Part shown: in pieces, positions 366 to 37,407 of the stretch
Position numbering within the stretch: the stretch's first letter is position 1
How the letters are laid out: every line of letters starts with the position of its first letter
Origin: a phage
Strand: one strand, 5' to 3'
Sequence record: PZ402302.1
Length of the DNA: 39,751 nt
Position numbers and translations under genes: made by a program
The notes under the pieces: model-generated
What the model was told of the DNA's origin: nothing
What the model saw: only the letters and a program-made list of their open reading frames with translations
Database searches by the model: none

Positions 366-809
366 ATGCTCAAGAATTTAAAGAGCTACGTCATAATAGC
401 TGCGTTTGCCTTGGGTATTACCCTTGCGTATAACCACGGATATGACAAAGCTAACACTAAATGGGAACAGGAGGTGCACAATGAGTACGTTAAGAAAGTT
501 AAGGCGACTGCGGATAAACAAGCTGCTATCAACGAAGTATCACGACAATACCAAGAAGACCTTGCGGCGCTGGAGGGCAGCACTGATAGGGTCATTAATG
601 ATTTGCGTAACGATGGTAAGCGGCTGCGCGTCAAGCTGTCAAACACCTCACGAGAACTCCAAGCTAACGGTGGATGCCTCGCTGATGGTCGAGCCGAACT
701 TGACGAAGAGTTTAGTAAGCGTCTTATCGGAGTAACTCAAAGAGGGGATGCGTGGATTAAAGCGCTCCAAAATACAATAACTGAAATGCAATCTAAGAAG
801 GAGAAATAA
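366..809 (+). CDS. 18.5: i-spanin (Rz-like, T7 gp18.5-like), 147 aa
   Basis: N-terminal TM helix (SYVIIAAFALGITLAY) followed by charged coiled-coil; contains embedded o-spanin ORF; RBS gggaggg upstream; position after gene 18. Confidence 0.85.
   Translation: MLKNLKSYVIIAAFALGITLAYNHGYDKANTKWEQEVHNEYVKKVKATADKQAAINEVSRQYQEDLAALEGSTDRVINDLRNDGKRLRVKLSNTSRELQANGGCLADGRAELDEEFSKRLIGVTQRGDAWIKALQNTITEMQSKKEK
481..735 (+). CDS. 18.7: o-spanin lipoprotein (Rz1-like, T7 gp18.7-like), 84 aa, embedded in +1 frame of 18.5
   Basis: ATG at 481 inside 18.5; MSTLRKLRRLR... then lipobox-like VSGC in LIGSLMICVTMVSGCASS; resembles recalled T7 gp18.7; ORF-track 406 start is a non-ATG extension. Confidence 0.75.
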   Translation: MSTLRKLRRLRINKLLSTKYHDNTKKTLRRWRAALIGSLMICVTMVSGCASSCQTPHENSKLTVDASLMVEPNLTKSLVSVLSE

Positions 810-810
810 T

Positions 811-1368
811 ATGTCTACTACAAACTCAAGAACCCGCACACTCTGGACCATCAATGGTCGCTCACCAGATAGCCGTGATGTGTATGATCGCAACAATATT
901 GGTCTTCGTGTTGGGCGTATCGACATCCCAGCTTCGGAGATGGTTAAGGTAGAGGGATACTCTAAGGTTGAATACGTTGTTCAACTTAGTGATGGCACCA
1001 CTGAGCAACATGCTACGTTCGAGACCCTTATGTCCACTTGGGGTGGCTCCGTCGAGTCTAAACCGGGTAGCGGGTTCATGACGGTGTTCCTGAATGAGCA
1101 AAGCACTGCGCGACTCGGTATGGTTCGAATCGACGTATACAAAGAGTGGACTGGTGCTGACCCTGAACCGGAAGGTGGTATGGCTTCCTTAGTTAGTGCA
1201 ACGCTTTCTGCGTCTGATAGTGAATTTGGTACACAGTTCGTGGATAGCGAAGGGAAGAGTGCTTCCGTTATGTTCCAACCTAGTGACATCGACGGGGCCG
1301 TATCTAAGACCGACACTATCAAGGCTCTTGAGAAGCGAATCGCTGCCTTAGAGAAATCTGCCAAGTAA
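811..1368 (+). CDS. hypothetical protein, 185 aa (no counterpart at this position in T7)
   Basis: Clean ORF with AAGGAG RBS 9 nt upstream of ATG; fills the 18.5-19 gap that is about 20 bp in T7; no Cys, S/T/G/E-rich, C-terminal heptad-like IKALEKRIAALEKSAK; function unknown. Confidence 0.75.
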   Translation: MSTTNSRTRTLWTINGRSPDSRDVYDRNNIGLRVGRIDIPASEMVKVEGYSKVEYVVQLSDGTTEQHATFETLMSTWGGSVESKPGSGFMTVFLNEQSTARLGMVRIDVYKEWTGADPEPEGGMASLVSATLSASDSEFGTQFVDSEGKSASVMFQPSDIDGAVSKTDTIKALEKRIAALEKSAK

Positions 1369-1383
1369 CAATAGGAGGCCACA

Positions 1384-3141
1384 ATGTCTACTCAAGCAAA
1401 CAAGAATGCGCTAATCATTGCGCAACTTAAGGGTGACTTCGTGGCCTTCCTGTTCGTCTTATGGAAGGCTCTGAACTTACCTAAACCAACCAAGTGTCAG
1501 ATTGATATGGCACGTACACTCGCTAATGGCGACCACAAGAAGTTTATCCTTCAGGCGTTCCGTGGTATCGGCAAGTCCTTTATCACCTGTGCGTTCGTCG
1601 TGTGGGTCTTATGGCGTGACCCTCAACTTAAGGTGCTCATCGTGTCTGCCTCCAAGGAACGTGCTGATGCTAACTCCATCTTCATCAAGAACATCATCGA
1701 CCTCCTTCCGTTCCTCTCTGAGTTAAAACCTCGACCGGGACAGCGAGACTCTGTGATTAGCTTCGACGTTGGCTTGGCTAAACCAGACCACTCACCCTCT
1801 GTGAAGTCTGTAGGTATCACTGGTCAGTTGACTGGTAGCCGTGCTGACATCATTATCGCAGATGACGTTGAGGTTCCCGGTAATAGCTCTACGAGTTCTG
1901 CCCGTGAGAAGCTCTGGACGTTGGTAACTGAGTTTGCTGCATTGCTTAAGCCACTGCCTACCTCTCGTGTTATCTACCTTGGTACACCTCAAACCGAGAT
2001 GACGCTCTACAAGGAACTTGAGGATAACAAAGGGTACAGCACAGTAATCTGGCCAGCACAGTATCCTCGTAATGATGCTGAGGCTCTCTACTATGGGGAC
2101 CGCTTGGCTCCGATGCTTAAGGCTGAATACGATGAAGGCTATGAGTTACTTCGTGGTCAACCTACTGACCCTGTTCGATTCGATATGGATGACCTCCGTG
2201 AGCGTGAACTCGAATACGGTAAAGCTGGCTACACTCTTCAGTTCATGCTTAACCCGAACCTTAGTGATGCCGAGAAGTACCCGCTACGGCTCCGTGACGC
2301 TATCGTGTGCGCAGTGGACACTGAACGTGCCCCATTGTCCTACCAGTGGTTGCCGAACCGTCAGAACCGCAATGAGGAACTTCCTAACGTGGGTCTGAAG
2401 GGTGACGACATTCACAGCTTCCATGTGTGTTCCTCTAAGACCGCTGAGTACCAGCAAAAGATTCTCGTCATTGACCCCTCTGGTCGTGGTAAGGATGAAA
2501 CAGGTTACGCAGTCCTCTACACCCTGAACGGCTACATCTACTTGATGGAGGTCGGTGGGTTCCGTGGTGGCTACGATGACCCTACCCTAGAGAAGCTCGC
2601 TAAGAAGGCCAAGCAGTGGAAGGTACAGACGGTCGTACACGAGAGTAACTTCGGTGATGGTATGTTCGGTAAGGTATTCTCTCCGGTTCTCCTGAAGCAC
2701 CACAAGTGTGCCTTAGAAGAGATTCGTGCTCGTGGCATGAAGGAGATGCGTATCTGCGATACTATCGAACCGTTGATGGGTGCACACCGCCTTATCATCC
2801 GTGACGAAGTAATCCGTGAGGACTACCAGACCGCTCGTGACCTCGATGGGAAGCATGATGTTCGCTACAGCGCGTTCTATCAGATGACCCGTATGACTCG
2901 TGAGAAGGGCGCTGTGGCACACGATGACCGACTTGATGCTATCGCATTGGGTATTGAGTTCCTTCGTGAAGGGATGCAGGTGGACTCTAAGGTTGGCGAG
3001 GAAGCTATGACCCTTGAGTTCCTTGAACACCACATGGAGAAACCTATCGTCGGTGGTGACATGGCTCGTGAGTTGGTGTCTGGAGGTGTGGACATCTACT
3101 ATGAGGATGACGGTGACGGAGAGTGCTTCATTGAGTGGTAG
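1384..3141 (+). CDS. 19: large terminase subunit / DNA maturase B (T7 gp19-like), 585 aa
   Basis: Length matches T7 gp19 (586 aa); [24 protein letters not shown]... and conserved blocks recalled from T7 gp19; RBS taggagg. Confidence 0.95.
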
Positions 3142-3228: not shown

Positions 3229-3251
3229 TAATACGACTCACTATTGGGAAG
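3229..3251 (+). promoter_or_regulatory. phage RNAP promoter (phiOR-like)
   Basis: taatacgactcactattgggaag; 17/17 T7-like core except T at -1; sits between gene 19 and 19.5 as phiOR does in T7. Confidence 0.85.
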
Positions 3252-4671: not shown

Positions 4672-5130
4672 ATGATTTTCACTAAAGAGCCTGCTAATGT
4701 CTTCTATGTACTGGTGTCAGCTTTCCGTTCCAACCTCGACGATGAGGTGAATATGAGTCGTCACCGCCACATGGTAAGCACTTTACGTGCCGCACCGGGT
4801 CTTTATGGCTCCGTTGAGTCAACCGATTTGACCGGGTGCTATCGTGAGGCAATCGCAAGCGCACCGACTGAGGAAAAAACGGTTCGTGTACGCTGCAAGG
4901 ACAAGGCGCAGGCACTCAATGTTGCACGCTTAGCTTGCAATGAGTGGGAGCAAGATTGCGTACTGGTATACAAATCACAGACTCACACGGCTGGTCTGGT
5001 GTACGCTAAAGGAATCGACGGTTACAAGGCTGAACGTCTGCCGGGTAGCTTCCAAGAAGTGCCTAAAGGCGCACCGCTTCAAGGTTGCTTTACGATTGAT
5101 GAGTTCGGTCGCCGCTGGCAAGTACAGTAA
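4672..5130 (+). CDS. 0.3: S-adenosylmethionine hydrolase/lyase (T3 gene 0.3-type SAMase; anti-restriction), 152 aa
   Basis: MIFTKEPANVFYVLVSAFRSNL...CFTIDEFGRRWQVQ matches recalled T3 0.3 SAMase almost residue for residue; first early gene after the sigma70 promoters; not Ocr-like. Confidence 0.9.
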   Translation: MIFTKEPANVFYVLVSAFRSNLDDEVNMSRHRHMVSTLRAAPGLYGSVESTDLTGCYREAIASAPTEEKTVRVRCKDKAQALNVARLACNEWEQDCVLVYKSQTHTAGLVYAKGIDGYKAERLPGSFQEVPKGAPLQGCFTIDEFGRRWQVQ

Positions 5131-7060: not shown

Positions 7061-9712
7061 ATGACTAACGTAATCAACGCACCAAAGAACGACTTCTCTG
7101 ACATCGCTAACGCAATCATGCCGTACAACATTCTGGCTGACCATTACGGTGCACAGCTTGCAGCTACGCAGTTACAGCTTGAGCACGAAGCGCACACTGA
7201 GGGTGAGAAGCGTTTTCTTAAGGCAATGGAACGTCAAATCAAAGCGGGTGAGTTCGGTGATAACGCAGTGGCTAAACCGCTCCTGTCATCTCTCGCACCG
7301 AAGTTTATCGAGGCGTGGAACACTTGGTTCACTGAAGTGGAAGCGAAGCGTGGCAAGCGTCCAGTGGCTTACAATCTGGTACAGAAGGTTGCACCTGAAG
7401 CTGCTGCATTCATCACACTGAAGGTCACGCTGGCTTGCTTGACGAAAGAAGAGTTCACCAACCTGCAATCGGTCGCTACTAAGATTGGTCGTAGCATTGA
7501 AGATGAACTGCGTTTTGGTCGCATCCGTGACGAAGAAGCGAAGCACTTTAAGAACCACGTACAGGAGGCACTGAACAAGCGCGTTGGCATCGTCTACAAG
7601 AAAGCATTCATGCAAGCCGTAGAGGGTAAGATGCTTGATGCTGGTCAACTGCAAACCAAGTGGACTACATGGACACCTGAAGAATCAATTCACGTTGGTG
7701 TGCGCATGTTGGAACTGCTCATCGGGTCTACTGGTCTCGTTGAGTTACACCGCCCGTTCGCTGGGAACATCGAGAAGGATGGCGAGTACATCCAGTTAAC
7801 AGAACAATATGTAGACCTGCTGTCTAAACGTGCTGGTGCACTGGCTGCAATCGCTCCGATGTATCAGCCTTGCGTGGTCCCTCCGAAGCCTTGGACTTCT
7901 CCGGTTGGTGGTGGCTATTGGGCGGCTGGTCGCAAGCCTCTCTCTCTGGTTCGTACTGGTAGCAAGAAGGGACTGGAACGTTACAACGATGTGTACATGC
8001 CTGAAGTTTACAAGGCGGTGAACATCGCACAGAATACTCCTTGGAAGATTAACAAGAAGGTTCTGGCAGTGGTCAACGAGATTGTGAACTGGAAGCATTG
8101 CCCGGTTGAAGATGTACCTGCTCTCGAACGTGGTGAACTGCCTGTCAAACCTGAAGACATCGACACGAACGAAGCGGCTCTGAAAGCGTGGAAGAAAGCG
8201 GCCTCCGCAATCTATCGCAAAGAGAAAGCACGAGTTTCTCGCCGCATGAGCATGGAGTTCATGTTAGGTCAGGCCAATAAGTTCGCACAGTTCAAAGCTA
8301 TCTGGTTCCCAATGAACATGGACTGGCGCGGTCGTGTGTATGCTGTGCCGATGTTTAACCCGCAAGGCAACGACATGACCAAAGGCTTGTTGACGCTCGC
8401 TAAAGGTAAACCAATTGGTGTCGATGGGTACTACTGGCTGAAGATTCATGGTGCAAACACTGCTGGCGTGGACAAGGTGGACTTTGCAGAACGCATCAAG
8501 TTCATTGATGACAACCATGAGAACATCATGAGCGTAGCTGCTGACCCGATTGCTAACACTTGGTGGGCCGAGCAAGACTCTCCGTTCTGCTTCCTCGCGT
8601 TCTGCTTCGAGTATGCAGGAGTCCAGCACCACGGAATGAACTACAACTGCTCTCTTCCGCTGGCGTTTGATGGTAGCTGCTCCGGTATTCAGCACTTCTC
8701 CGCAATGCTTCGTGATGAAATTGGCGGTCGCGCTGTTAACTTACTGCCGAGCAAGGAAGTCCAAGACATCTACCGCATCGTAGCGGAACGTGTCAACGAG
8801 ATTCTGAACCAAGATGTTATCAACGGGACCGACAACGAAGTAGAGACCGTGACCAACAAGGACACAGGGGAAATCACTGAGAAGCTCAAGCTGGGCACTA
8901 AAGAACTAGCTGGTCAGTGGCTGGCCTACGGTGTGACCCGCAAGGTCACTAAGCGTTCGGTTATGACGTTGGCTTACGGTTCCAAAGAGTACGGATTCCG
9001 TGACCAAGTTCTTGAGGATACCATTCAGCCAGCTATCGACGATGGCAAGGGCTTGATGTTCACTCAACCGAACCAAGCGGCTGGCTATATGGCTAAACTG
9101 ATTTGGAACGCGGTAACGGTGACAGTGGTCGCAGCGGTTGAAGCAATGAACTGGCTGAAGTCTGCGGCTAAACTTCTAGCTGCTGAAGTCAAGGACAAGA
9201 AGACCAAAGAGGTTCTCCGCAAGCGCTGCGCGGTACATTGGGTTACTCCTGATGGCTTCCCGGTCTGGCAGGAATACAAGAAGCCAGTACAGACCCGCTT
9301 GAACCTGATGTTCTTAGGCCAGATTCGTCTACAGCCTACCGTGAACACCAACAAGGATAGCGGAATTGATGCTCGTAAGCAGGAGTCAGGCATCGCACCT
9401 AACTTTGTCCACTCAATGGATGGAAGCCACCTGCGCATGACTGTGGTCCGCTCCAATGAGGTCTACGGTGTGGAATCGTTCGCACTGATTCACGACTCCT
9501 TTGGTACTATCCCTGCTGATGCTGGCAACCTGTTTAAAGCAGTGCGCGAAACGATGGTCAACACTTACGAAGAGAACGATGTACTAGCAGACTTCTATGA
9601 GCAATTTGCTGACCAGTTACATGAATCGCAGCTTGACAAGATGCCTGAGATGCCAGCTAAAGGTTCTCTGGACCTGCAAGAAATCCTTAAGTCAGACTTT
9701 GCGTTTGCCTAA
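7061..9712 (+). CDS. 1: single-subunit DNA-dependent RNA polymerase (T7 gene 1-like), 883 aa
   Basis: Same length as T7 RNAP; long identical stretches by recall (ACLTKEEF-type palm/fingers blocks, specificity-loop region PTVNTNKDSGIDARKQESGIAPNFVHS, C-terminus SDFAFA). Confidence 0.97.
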   Translation: MTNVINAPKNDFSDIANAIMPYNILADHYGAQLAATQLQLEHEAHTEGEKRFLKAMERQIKAGEFGDNAVAKPLLSSLAPKFIEAWNTWFTEVEAKRGKRPVAYNLVQKVAPEAAAFITLKVTLACLTKEEFTNLQSVATKIGRSIEDELRFGRIRDEEAKHFKNHVQEALNKRVGIVYKKAFMQAVEGKMLDAGQLQTKWTTWTPEESIHVGVRMLELLIGSTGLVELHRPFAGNIEKDGEYIQLTEQYVDLLSKRAGALAAIAPMYQPCVVPPKPWTSPVGGGYWAAGRKPLSLVRTGSKKGLERYNDVYMPEVYKAVNIAQNTPWKINKKVLAVVNEIVNWKHCPVEDVPALERGELPVKPEDIDTNEAALKAWKKAASAIYRKEKARVSRRMSMEFMLGQANKFAQFKAIWFPMNMDWRGRVYAVPMFNPQGNDMTKGLLTLAKGKPIGVDGYYWLKIHGANTAGVDKVDFAERIKFIDDNHENIMSVAADPIANTWWAEQDSPFCFLAFCFEYAGVQHHGMNYNCSLPLAFDGSCSGIQHFSAMLRDEIGGRAVNLLPSKEVQDIYRIVAERVNEILNQDVINGTDNEVETVTNKDTGEITEKLKLGTKELAGQWLAYGVTRKVTKRSVMTLAYGSKEYGFRDQVLEDTIQPAIDDGKGLMFTQPNQAAGYMAKLIWNAVTVTVVAAVEAMNWLKSAAKLLAAEVKDKKTKEVLRKRCAVHWVTPDGFPVWQEYKKPVQTRLNLMFLGQIRLQPTVNTNKDSGIDARKQESGIAPNFVHSMDGSHLRMTVVRSNEVYGVESFALIHDSFGTIPADAGNLFKAVRETMVNTYEENDVLADFYEQFADQLHESQLDKMPEMPAKGSLDLQEILKSDFAFA

Positions 9713-20424: not shown

Positions 20425-20727
20425 ATGGCTATTACTAAACGTTTTAAAGTATCATTCGAAGTCACCGCTGTAATTGATAGCGAGTCTGAGAACAACCTGA
20501 ATGATTTACTCGTAGACATCGCTAAGAAAGCTGCCACTGGTGAGGAACTTAACCCGTTTAAACGTGAGTTGCTAGTTCAAGGTCTAACCTATGGACCAGA
20601 AGGTGCTGCCGCATTCTGTATCAAGCAGGGTCTTCGCAATTTTATTCGTGAGGGCCACGGCGAACTGAGTTCAACCGAGCGAAAGCTCATGCGATTCTCT
20701 CCAGCTACTATTCGTGAGGTGAAGTAA
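20425..20727 (+). CDS. 5.5: gp5.5-like protein (H-NS-binding family), 100 aa
   Basis: MAITKRFKVSFEVTA... and C-terminal SPATIREV match recalled T7 gp5.5. Confidence 0.75.
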   Translation: MAITKRFKVSFEVTAVIDSESENNLNDLLVDIAKKAATGEELNPFKRELLVQGLTYGPEGAAAFCIKQGLRNFIREGHGELSSTERKLMRFSPATIREVK

Positions 20728-20936
20728 TGGGTGATTATCTACGTGTACTGGCGGCTATCAAAAGCTGCCCCAAGACCTTTCAGTCGAACTATGTGCGCAA
20801 CAATGCGTCACTGGTGGCTGAGGCTGCGAGTCGTGGTCATATCTCTTGCCTATCAGTCGATGGGCGTAATGCTGGCGCTTGGGAAGTAACAGGCGCTGGT
20901 GTCCGATTCCTGAAGAAGATGGGAGGTTGCGTATGA
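20727..20936 (+). CDS. 5.7: gp5.7-like protein, 69 aa
   Basis: AIKSCPKTFQSNYVRNNASLVAEAASRGHISCL...RFLKKMGGCV nearly identical to recalled T7 gp5.7. Confidence 0.85.
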   Translation: MGDYLRVLAAIKSCPKTFQSNYVRNNASLVAEAASRGHISCLSVDGRNAGAWEVTGAGVRFLKKMGGCV

Positions 20937-37338: not shown

Positions 37339-37361
37339 CAATACGACTCACTATTGGGAAG
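37339..37361 (+). promoter_or_regulatory. phage RNAP promoter (phi17-like)
   Basis: caatacgactcactattgggaaggc. Confidence 0.85.
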
Positions 37362-37407
37362 GCTCACATAGCTTCCCTCTATTTACCTAACCGAAAGGAG
37401 GCTACAG

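Follow-up and report, generated by a model that had tools for sequence, protein, structure and literature searches.

Gene 18.9, a dispensable gene between the spanin and terminase genes of T7-like phages, may encode an accessory fiber or decoration

Introduction

Few viruses are understood as well as the T7-like phages, which serve widely in engineering, display, and therapy. The list of their virion parts is generally regarded as complete, and host range is mainly ascribed to the tail fiber protein gp17. Small, non-essential decorations or head fibers are known from phi29 (gp8.5), phage L (Dec), T5 (pb10), and T4 (Hoc); these proteins combine an anchor domain with a projecting oligomeric or Ig-like part, and related phages may differ in them or lack them. 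KP32-type Klebsiella phages (Przondovirus) possess second receptor-binding proteins, large depolymerases that attach to the first receptor-binding protein through a short peptide at their N-terminus.

Here, we analyze gene 18.9, which lies between the Rz-type spanin gene and the gene for the large terminase (TerL) in a Berlinvirus genome. The architecture and dispensability of this gene match those of phi29 gp8.5, Dec, pb10, and Hoc, and no sequence or fold similarity to these four proteins was detected. As in KP32-type phages, the gene would supply an extra, exchangeable fiber-type protein apart from the gene 17 product; in the KP32-type genome that we examined, however, the extra fiber-type gene directly follows gene 17, and the Rz-TerL interval holds no annotated gene. 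Gene 18.9 itself is already in the databases; what we add is a delimited family, a description of its modular build, and a hypothesis open to test.

Results

Gene 18.9 is a protein-coding gene of the late phi17 transcript

The DNA analyzed here (record PZ402302.1; the whole stretch of 39,751 nucleotides is the window in what follows) is a complete, circularly permuted T7-like genome of the genus Berlinvirus. It starts at gene 18 and runs through right-end genes 18 to 19.5 into the early region, which begins with a SAM hydrolase gene at about position 4672. The record nearest to its first 12 kb is Escherichia phage nasanit (PV245933; 96.5% identity), while other Berlinviruses, including CarlSpitteler, Carena, P483, S523, 285P, and BA14, are 81–96% identical over 54–90% of the query.

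A preliminary description of the window had drawn attention to a 558-bp open reading frame preceded by an AAGGAG ribosome-binding site and encoding a 185-residue protein without cysteine and with a heptad-like end, and our reading of the sequence agrees on every one of these points. The open reading frame occupies positions 811–1368 of the plus strand and begins with ATG. Its product (20.1 kDa, pI 4.9) is richest in S, T, G, V, and E, starts with the hydrophilic segment MSTTNSRTRTLWTINGRSPDSRD, and ends in the heptad-like segment TIKALEKRIAALEKSAK. The Shine-Dalgarno sequence (797–802, plus strand) lies inside the final codons of gene 18.5, 8 nt upstream of the ATG; the stop codon of 18.5 (807–809) is 1 nt away from that ATG, and 15 nt separate the 18.9 stop from the start of gene 19 at 1384, which has its own AGGAGG. 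GC content and codon use are those of the remaining genome. Together with the ORF list, a match to the protein family phrog_20446, intact orthologs, and low dN/dS values described below, these features identify gene 18.9 as a real protein-coding gene.

On the 5' side, gene 18.5 (366–809, plus strand) encodes the Rz i-spanin (phrog_1327, Rz-like spanin, E 3.7e-61) and contains, in another frame of the same strand, gene 18.7 for the Rz1 o-spanin (481–735), which we located by translation and by the position annotated for 18.7 in BA14. We read the motif ...MVSGC in the 18.7 product as a putative lipobox. The 3' neighbor, gene 19 (1384–3141, plus strand), encodes the large terminase according to the ORF list and the BA14 comparison. 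The product of gene 18.9 itself matched no lysis PHROG in a PHROG search, and its translation shows neither a signal peptide nor a transmembrane segment nor a lipobox, the last of which follows from its lack of cysteine; periplasmic roles in lysis are therefore unlikely.

A scan for phage RNA polymerase promoters gave 12 matches in the window, where none is expected by chance, all on the plus strand (at 3229, 4120, 9720, 10345, 10869, 13222, 17012, 21935, 24541, 25535, 29999, and 37339) and with the core TAATACGACTCACTATTGGGA or near variants of it. This core differs by one base, adjoining the start site, from the T7 promoter consensus, TAATACGACTCACTATAGGGA. The last promoter upstream of genes 17, 17.5, 18, 18.5/18.7, 18.9, and 19 is phi17 (37339–37359, plus strand), and the next is phiOR (3229–3249), beyond gene 19. 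Because no promoter intervenes, gene 18.9 is co-transcribed with the tail fiber, holin, terminase, and spanin genes, and it belongs to the late phi17 transcript. Between genes 18 and 18.5, at 279–302, the scan also flagged as terminator-like a stem-loop of 10 bp (AAGGCCACTACATCTAGTGGTCTT) with a T-rich run behind it; in T7 this position is occupied by the RNase III site R18.5.

The 18.9 family is small and occupies one slot across T7-like genera

Gene 18.9 was detected by tblastn in 58 phage records. Full-length orthologs at 92–97% identity are present in 17 of these (among them BA14, 285P, FE44, P483, BSP161, S523, PhiV-1, nasanit, PZJ0206, ETEP21B, and CarlSpitteler), with the reading frame intact in all 17. 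The protein had been thought unassignable to any family, an assessment that does not hold given these 17 annotated records and a full-length match to phrog_20446 (E 1.7e-126); residues 4–124 additionally match phrog_27102 (E 2.1e-47). The annotations of the orthologs are uniformly 'hypothetical' or 'unknown product' (the latter in BA14), and phrog_20446 is labeled 'unknown function'. Searches of Pfam, NCBIfam, and PDB sequences with the 18.9 protein returned nothing significant, and in the literature we found no statement on the function or proteomics of the gene.

A Foldseek search against viral models matched a 205-residue protein of Klebsiella phage Sibilus (genus Ningirsuvirus; E 9e-5), whose gene falls precisely in the Rz-TerL interval and is separated from TerL by 15 nt. 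Profile alignment of the Sibilus protein with the window's family (hhalign) gave an E-value of 0.0058 over 101 colinear columns. The structural search proposed earlier thus yielded a distant homolog, but no known decoration or anchor fold. Relatives of the Sibilus protein are found in Dickeya phage JA10, in several Erwinia and Pantoea phages, and in Erwinia phage L1 (vB_EamP-L1, Elunavirus), where the gene in the Rz-TerL slot is annotated 'gp18.9'. A metagenomic homolog, P0026, joins the two branches, since its N-terminal domain is of the Berlinvirus type, with matches to phrog_20446 and phrog_27102, and its C-terminus is of the Sibilus type, with a match to phrog_5004. L1 gp18.9 and members of PHROGs 20446, 27102, and 5004 share with the window protein the slot, a similar size, and a homologous N-terminal domain, although in the L1/Sibilus branch this domain is only ~21% identical to the window's and the C-terminal module differs. 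Since members of the three PHROGs have no assigned function, membership gives gene 18.9 a name and explains nothing about it.

Searches of larger databases delimit the family. We recovered 18 clusters from 5.8 billion proteins, ~16 genuine clusters alongside a few repeat-protein matches in an exhaustive search of 1.84 billion representatives with the N-terminal domain profile, and 14 clusters without any domain fusion in a wider profile search. Matches to the family were standalone proteins throughout three large-database searches and one exhaustive profile search; full-length members measure 181–300 residues, and the shorter matches are a 75-residue deletion form and a 40-residue fragment. 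The 18.9 family is therefore small.

The synteny comparison that the preliminary description had suggested gave a uniform answer: every member with a readable neighborhood has an Rz-type gene before it and the large terminase gene after it, including members only about 30–40% identical and those of unclassified metagenomic T7-like phages. We confirmed the slot in BA14, Altay-2017, YpP_T3, PYPS50, Sibilus, L1, pEp_SNUABM_11, and metagenomic contigs. At most loci examined, the start of 18.9 overlaps the Rz stop or lies no more than 1–2 nt from it (14 nt in locus L024), and the spacer to TerL is 11–18 nt, most commonly 15 nt. Taken together, these profile matches and gene orders point to a single family that holds the same slot in at least three genera of Studiervirinae (Berlinvirus, Ningirsuvirus, and Elunavirus). 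Gene 18.9 is thus a stable resident of its slot and not a one-off insertion.

The comparison with T7 made in the preliminary description is correct: T7 has no gene in the slot, with 18.5 ending at 37348, gene 19 starting at 37370, and a 21-nt spacer between them. Among the phages that we examined, phiYeO3-12 and a KP32-type Przondovirus also have no gene there. The implied novelty of the locus therefore stands relative to T7 but not as regards the sequence, which is annotated in many T7-like phages of at least three genera. The view of gene 18.9 as a gene awaiting a role is likewise upheld, because no assigned function was found in the phages that carry it.

Gene 18.9 is dispensable and under purifying selection

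In seven BA14-type orthologs, dN/dS was 0.18 for the whole gene, 0.11 for the N-terminal 120 codons, and 0.32 for the remaining, C-terminal part; the same calculation gave 0.105 for gene 19 (seven BA14-type sequences) and 0.22 for gene 18.5 (six). Gene 18.9 is thus under purifying selection, like its neighbors. Among BA14-type phages, dS is ~0.10 in 18.5 and 18.9 versus ~0.30 in gene 19, an approximately threefold difference; recombination may recently have carried the 18.5–18.9 block from some of these genomes to others.

The Rz-TerL junction is matched by ~78 records at ≥90% nucleotide identity, only 58 of which contain 18.9. The gene is cleanly absent from about 20 Berlinvirus records, for example those of Kvp1, pO103, and PP74. 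In Kvp1, ...GAAATGCAA runs directly into CAATAGGAGGCCACAATG, the ribosome-binding site and start of the terminase gene, so that the natural junction falls between GAAATGCAA and CAATAGGAGG. Escherichia phage Carena (OR769031, 1013–1240) carries a 75-residue in-frame remnant in which residues 1–42 are joined to residues ~147–185. Together, the natural absences and the in-frame deletion show that gene 18.9 is dispensable in nature, including for plaque formation of isolated Berlinviruses. The earlier account of a late-operon accessory gene that T7 lacks is therefore borne out, both by its place in the phi17 transcript and by its variable presence. In the Carena remnant, which retains the N-terminal 42 residues and the C-terminal helices, the breakpoints as judged by eye share a GCTTC microhomology corresponding to window positions ~932–936 and 1262–1266.

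Where the gene is present, it exists as discrete alleles. Compared to the window protein, the BA14-type allele is 94–97% identical and the Altay-type allele 53% identical; the 'knob' allele of PYPS50 and Yep phages is 62–67% identical in the N-terminal domain, with an unrelated middle. Across these alleles, genes 18, 18.5, and 19 stay 88–99% identical, and gene 19 alone is 93–99% identical across Berlinviruses irrespective of the 18.9 allele. We considered whether alleles track the host genus, as PYPS50 suggested, but records of phages with Y. pestis as host carry at least three (knob, Yepe2/Berlin, and Altay types), which weakens this idea. Accessory genes seem to collect preferentially at the right end of Berlinvirus-type genomes. 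Kvp1, which lacks 18.9, has a gene 18.2 between 18 and 18.5 and a P2-type tail fiber assembly gene, 17.2 (1576–1911 and 488–1012).

A conserved N-terminal domain precedes an exchangeable part

Alignment of the family shows a conserved N-terminal domain ending in the motif ADPEPE, a variable middle, and a helical C-terminus. In the window protein, the N-terminal domain comprises residues 1–121 (811–1173, plus strand), and AlphaFold 2 (AF2) predicts six beta-strands and one helix for it with high confidence (pLDDT ~90). This orphan domain defines the family, and its charged residues R17, D20, R22, D26, R36, D38, K52, E54, E82, K111, and E112 are invariant. The ADPEPE hinge (residues 116–121; 1156–1173, plus strand), in which D117, P118, E119, and P120 are invariant or almost so, marks the boundary with the exchangeable part in the alignment.

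Beyond the hinge, AF2 confidence is lower. The BA14-type variable module (residues 122–157; 1174–1281, plus strand) contains three predicted strands (127–134, 139–145, and 150–155) at low to moderate confidence (pLDDT 59–76), and the C-terminal part (residues 158–185, including TIKALEKRIAALEKSAK; 1282–1365, plus strand), delimited by AF2 and alignment, contains predicted helices at 158–164 and 167–184. The family's C-terminus reads ...LEKRIxALE.PA, which otherwise different alleles have in common, or ...IK.ALGI.... The heptads of the window allele (Ile at position a, Leu at position d) extend over only about two repeats, too short a stretch to establish a trimer. In homolog P0004, the heptad unit is duplicated in tandem; tandem duplication is common in fiber shafts.

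Neither part of the window protein resembles a protein of known role. The N-terminal domain matched none of the known capsid-decoration or fiber-anchor folds, and hhalign with its profile detected no paralog among the window's plus-strand ORFs of at least 60 residues. The few repeat-protein matches are to HYR and HYR_4C profiles; these scores are probably inflated by repetition, and they give a weak hint that the domain may be an Ig-like sandwich. The C-terminal module (residues 122–185 in the window; 66–69 residues) has no match outside BA14-type phages. We tested the module as a decayed knob, and the resemblance was not significant, since 64 of 500 shuffles reached the score obtained with PYPS50 and 22 of 500 that obtained with homolog P0007; in the model of a knob-type homolog, the knob region itself has pLDDT below 50. 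Residues 133–184 gave a match to phrog_1857, 'head-tail connector' (E 0.009), which we regard as noise; this PHROG did not appear among the matches of seven small proteins of the window genome that we scanned as a follow-up.

Homologs carry tail fiber-type modules in the exchangeable part

In three types of homolog, the exchangeable part matches tail fiber proteins. Residues 114–219 of metagenomic homolog P0011 match positions 140–245 of the T7-type tail fiber family PHROG 4242 (E 5.5e-9), and the protein aligns with gp17 of its own genome from an ADP..DAV motif onward (ADPEADPDAV, versus ADPVEDGDAV at gp17 residues 139–148). The gp17-like shaft is grafted exactly where the Berlinvirus N-terminal domain ends, at the hinge, and the tail-attachment domain of T7 gp17 ends at about the equivalent of gp17 residues 139–148. 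In the PYPS50/Yep type, the module matches phrog_6578, 'tail fiber' (E 1e-4 to 1e-6), and the knob matches proteins annotated as tail fibers in Salmonella phage SP01 and Xanthomonas phage RTH11 (31–37% identity, E ~1e-5). Residues 129–198 of L1 gp18.9 match phrog_23820, also 'tail fiber' (E 6.6e-5). The E-values are modest throughout, and parts of the matches fall in coiled-coil or compositionally biased sequence. On the strength of these three independent homolog types, the exchangeable part appears to be built from tail fiber material. As the window's own module matches only BA14-type phages, the fiber evidence for the window protein is borrowed from its homologs.

The metagenomic contig that carries P0011 (L019) encodes an unusually short gp17 (7640–8947; 435 residues, compared to 674 in the window), and its gp17 and 18.9 genes may have exchanged material.

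The layout that we propose for 18.9 proteins, in which a globular domain at the N-terminus leads through an ADP.. hinge to a shaft and then a helical or knob part, would be common to T7-type gp17. Both genes belong to the same late transcript, and in P0011 a gp17-like shaft stands at the equivalent hinge. The differences are equally clear. T7-type gp17 has the N-terminal domain PF03906 (Phage_T7_tail), unlike the 18.9 product with its lack of Pfam matches, and the 18.9 N-terminal domain shows no similarity to the window's gp17 by either profile alignment (hhalign probability 0.4%) or BLASTP (E >1). The window's 18.9 protein is 185 residues long compared to 674 for gp17, and it has about two heptads and no recognizable receptor-binding tip, whereas homologs carry shaft-like or knob-like modules; finally, gene 18.9 is dispensable, unlike gene 17.

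Discussion

We propose, tentatively, that the product of gene 18.9 is a non-essential, virion-attached accessory fiber or decoration. It is also possible, and we advance this with more reserve, that it represents an unrecognized part of the T7-like virion, namely an exchangeable auxiliary fiber or a second protein of host contact, found in at least three genera of Studiervirinae, whose anchor domain would be of a new kind and which would influence adsorption or host range independently of gp17. In the proposed arrangement, the N-terminal beta-sandwich (residues 1–121) would anchor the protein to a conserved surface of the virion, on either the capsid or the tail, the ADPEPE hinge would begin a short projecting part, and the C-terminal heptad segment would oligomerize it. 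In sister alleles, the projecting part would be replaced by fiber-shaft or fiber-knob modules. Because fiber modules are swapped there, the projecting part would contact the cell surface or the environment, modulating adsorption in a non-essential way. We infer presence in the virion, anchoring by the N-terminal domain, oligomerization, and the effect on adsorption from the sequence and its comparisons.

Several observations favor an accessory fiber or decoration. The gene has a strong ribosome-binding site in a late operon of structural genes, and its product pairs a conserved N-terminal domain with an exchangeable remainder that takes fiber-type modules in three homolog types. Discrete alleles within flanks of 91–99% identity are a form of mosaicism typical of host-contact proteins, and the phi29 head fiber is dispensable, as 18.9 is. 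One observation speaks against an anchor: the N-terminal domain is 53–67% identical between alleles, versus >90% for the flanking genes 18, 18.5, and 19, and it may thus be rather divergent for an anchor, provided that virion proteins show the same conservation as those genes. vB_ShiP-A7, a phage with virion mass spectrometry (PMC8427288), gave no tblastn match to 18.9. Of three roles offered in the preliminary description, virion decoration gains indirect support from the fiber modules of homologs, while we found no positive evidence for a modulator of lysis or packaging or for an anti-defense function.

An intracellular late accessory protein, acting in host interaction, anti-defense, or exclusion, is unlikely but accounts for part of the data. 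Its N-terminal domain would bind a host or phage factor through the surface suggested by the many invariant charged residues, its C-terminal helices would oligomerize, and allele diversity would reflect an arms race. A small, acidic, soluble product with no structural match tying it to the virion would suit such a role, as would a gene that is present or absent among near-identical genomes and occurs in several discrete alleles, at least three of them in phages of the same host, Y. pestis. Late transcription from phi17, however, comes at a poor time for opposing restriction or abortive systems that act early, it is hard to see what use the cell interior would offer for shaft and knob modules of the tail fiber kind, and the Pfam, NCBIfam, and PDB sequence searches linked the protein to no characterized family, anti-defense proteins included. 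We consider it improbable that 18.9 modulates lysis or DNA packaging in coupling with Rz/Rz1 and the large terminase. The strict conservation of the Rz-TerL position across genera, even at 20–35% identity, fits this idea, as does the tight coupling of the gene to both neighbors, with its start at or near the Rz stop and 11–18 nt to TerL. But gene order is conserved genome-wide in T7-like phages, so position alone carries little information; lysis and packaging proceed in its absence in T7, T3-type phages, Kvp1, and about 20 other Berlinviruses; and a protein lacking a transmembrane segment, signal peptide, and lipobox would not reach the periplasm, where spanins act. TerL and Rz moreover remain 88–99% identical across unrelated 18.9 alleles, and hence do not co-vary with 18.9.

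Two further explanations fare worse. A chaperone for assembly of the tail fiber gp17 would suitably be made late, from the transcript that carries gene 17; 18.9 homologs hold fiber-like segments, and some T7-like phages do have fiber assembly genes, such as 17.2 of Kvp1. Yet 18.9 does not adjoin gene 17, has no Pfam match to tail fiber assembly families, and assorts independently of gp17: phages with 94–97% identical 18.9 proteins have gp17 only 68–92% identical to the window's, and PYPS50 and BSP161 share gp17 (91%; PMC8762354) but differ in their 18.9 allele. We find this role very improbable. That 18.9 is a decaying or selfish remnant without present function is equally hard to credit; frequent loss and the truncation in Carena would agree with it, but dN/dS is as low as in neighboring essential genes (0.18 overall, 0.11 in the N-terminal domain), the frame is intact in 17 of 17 full-length ortholog records, and the slot is kept across three genera.

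If gene 18.9 encodes a swappable accessory fiber or decoration, the T7-like virion parts list would gain one more component and its engineers a naturally dispensable site for modification or display. Such a protein might also explain host-range differences between near-identical Berlinviruses that are independent of gp17. If the product is intracellular, 18.9 would be one further small accessory gene.

Elsewhere in the window, at 20425–20933, two small genes adjoin each other and encode proteins of 100 and 69 residues. The first matches the Gp5.5-like H-NS inhibitor PHROG, and the two jointly match a single family of 170 positions, phrog_17900. T7 makes a 5.5–5.7 fusion, and the arrangement in the window is consistent with a fused product here as well.
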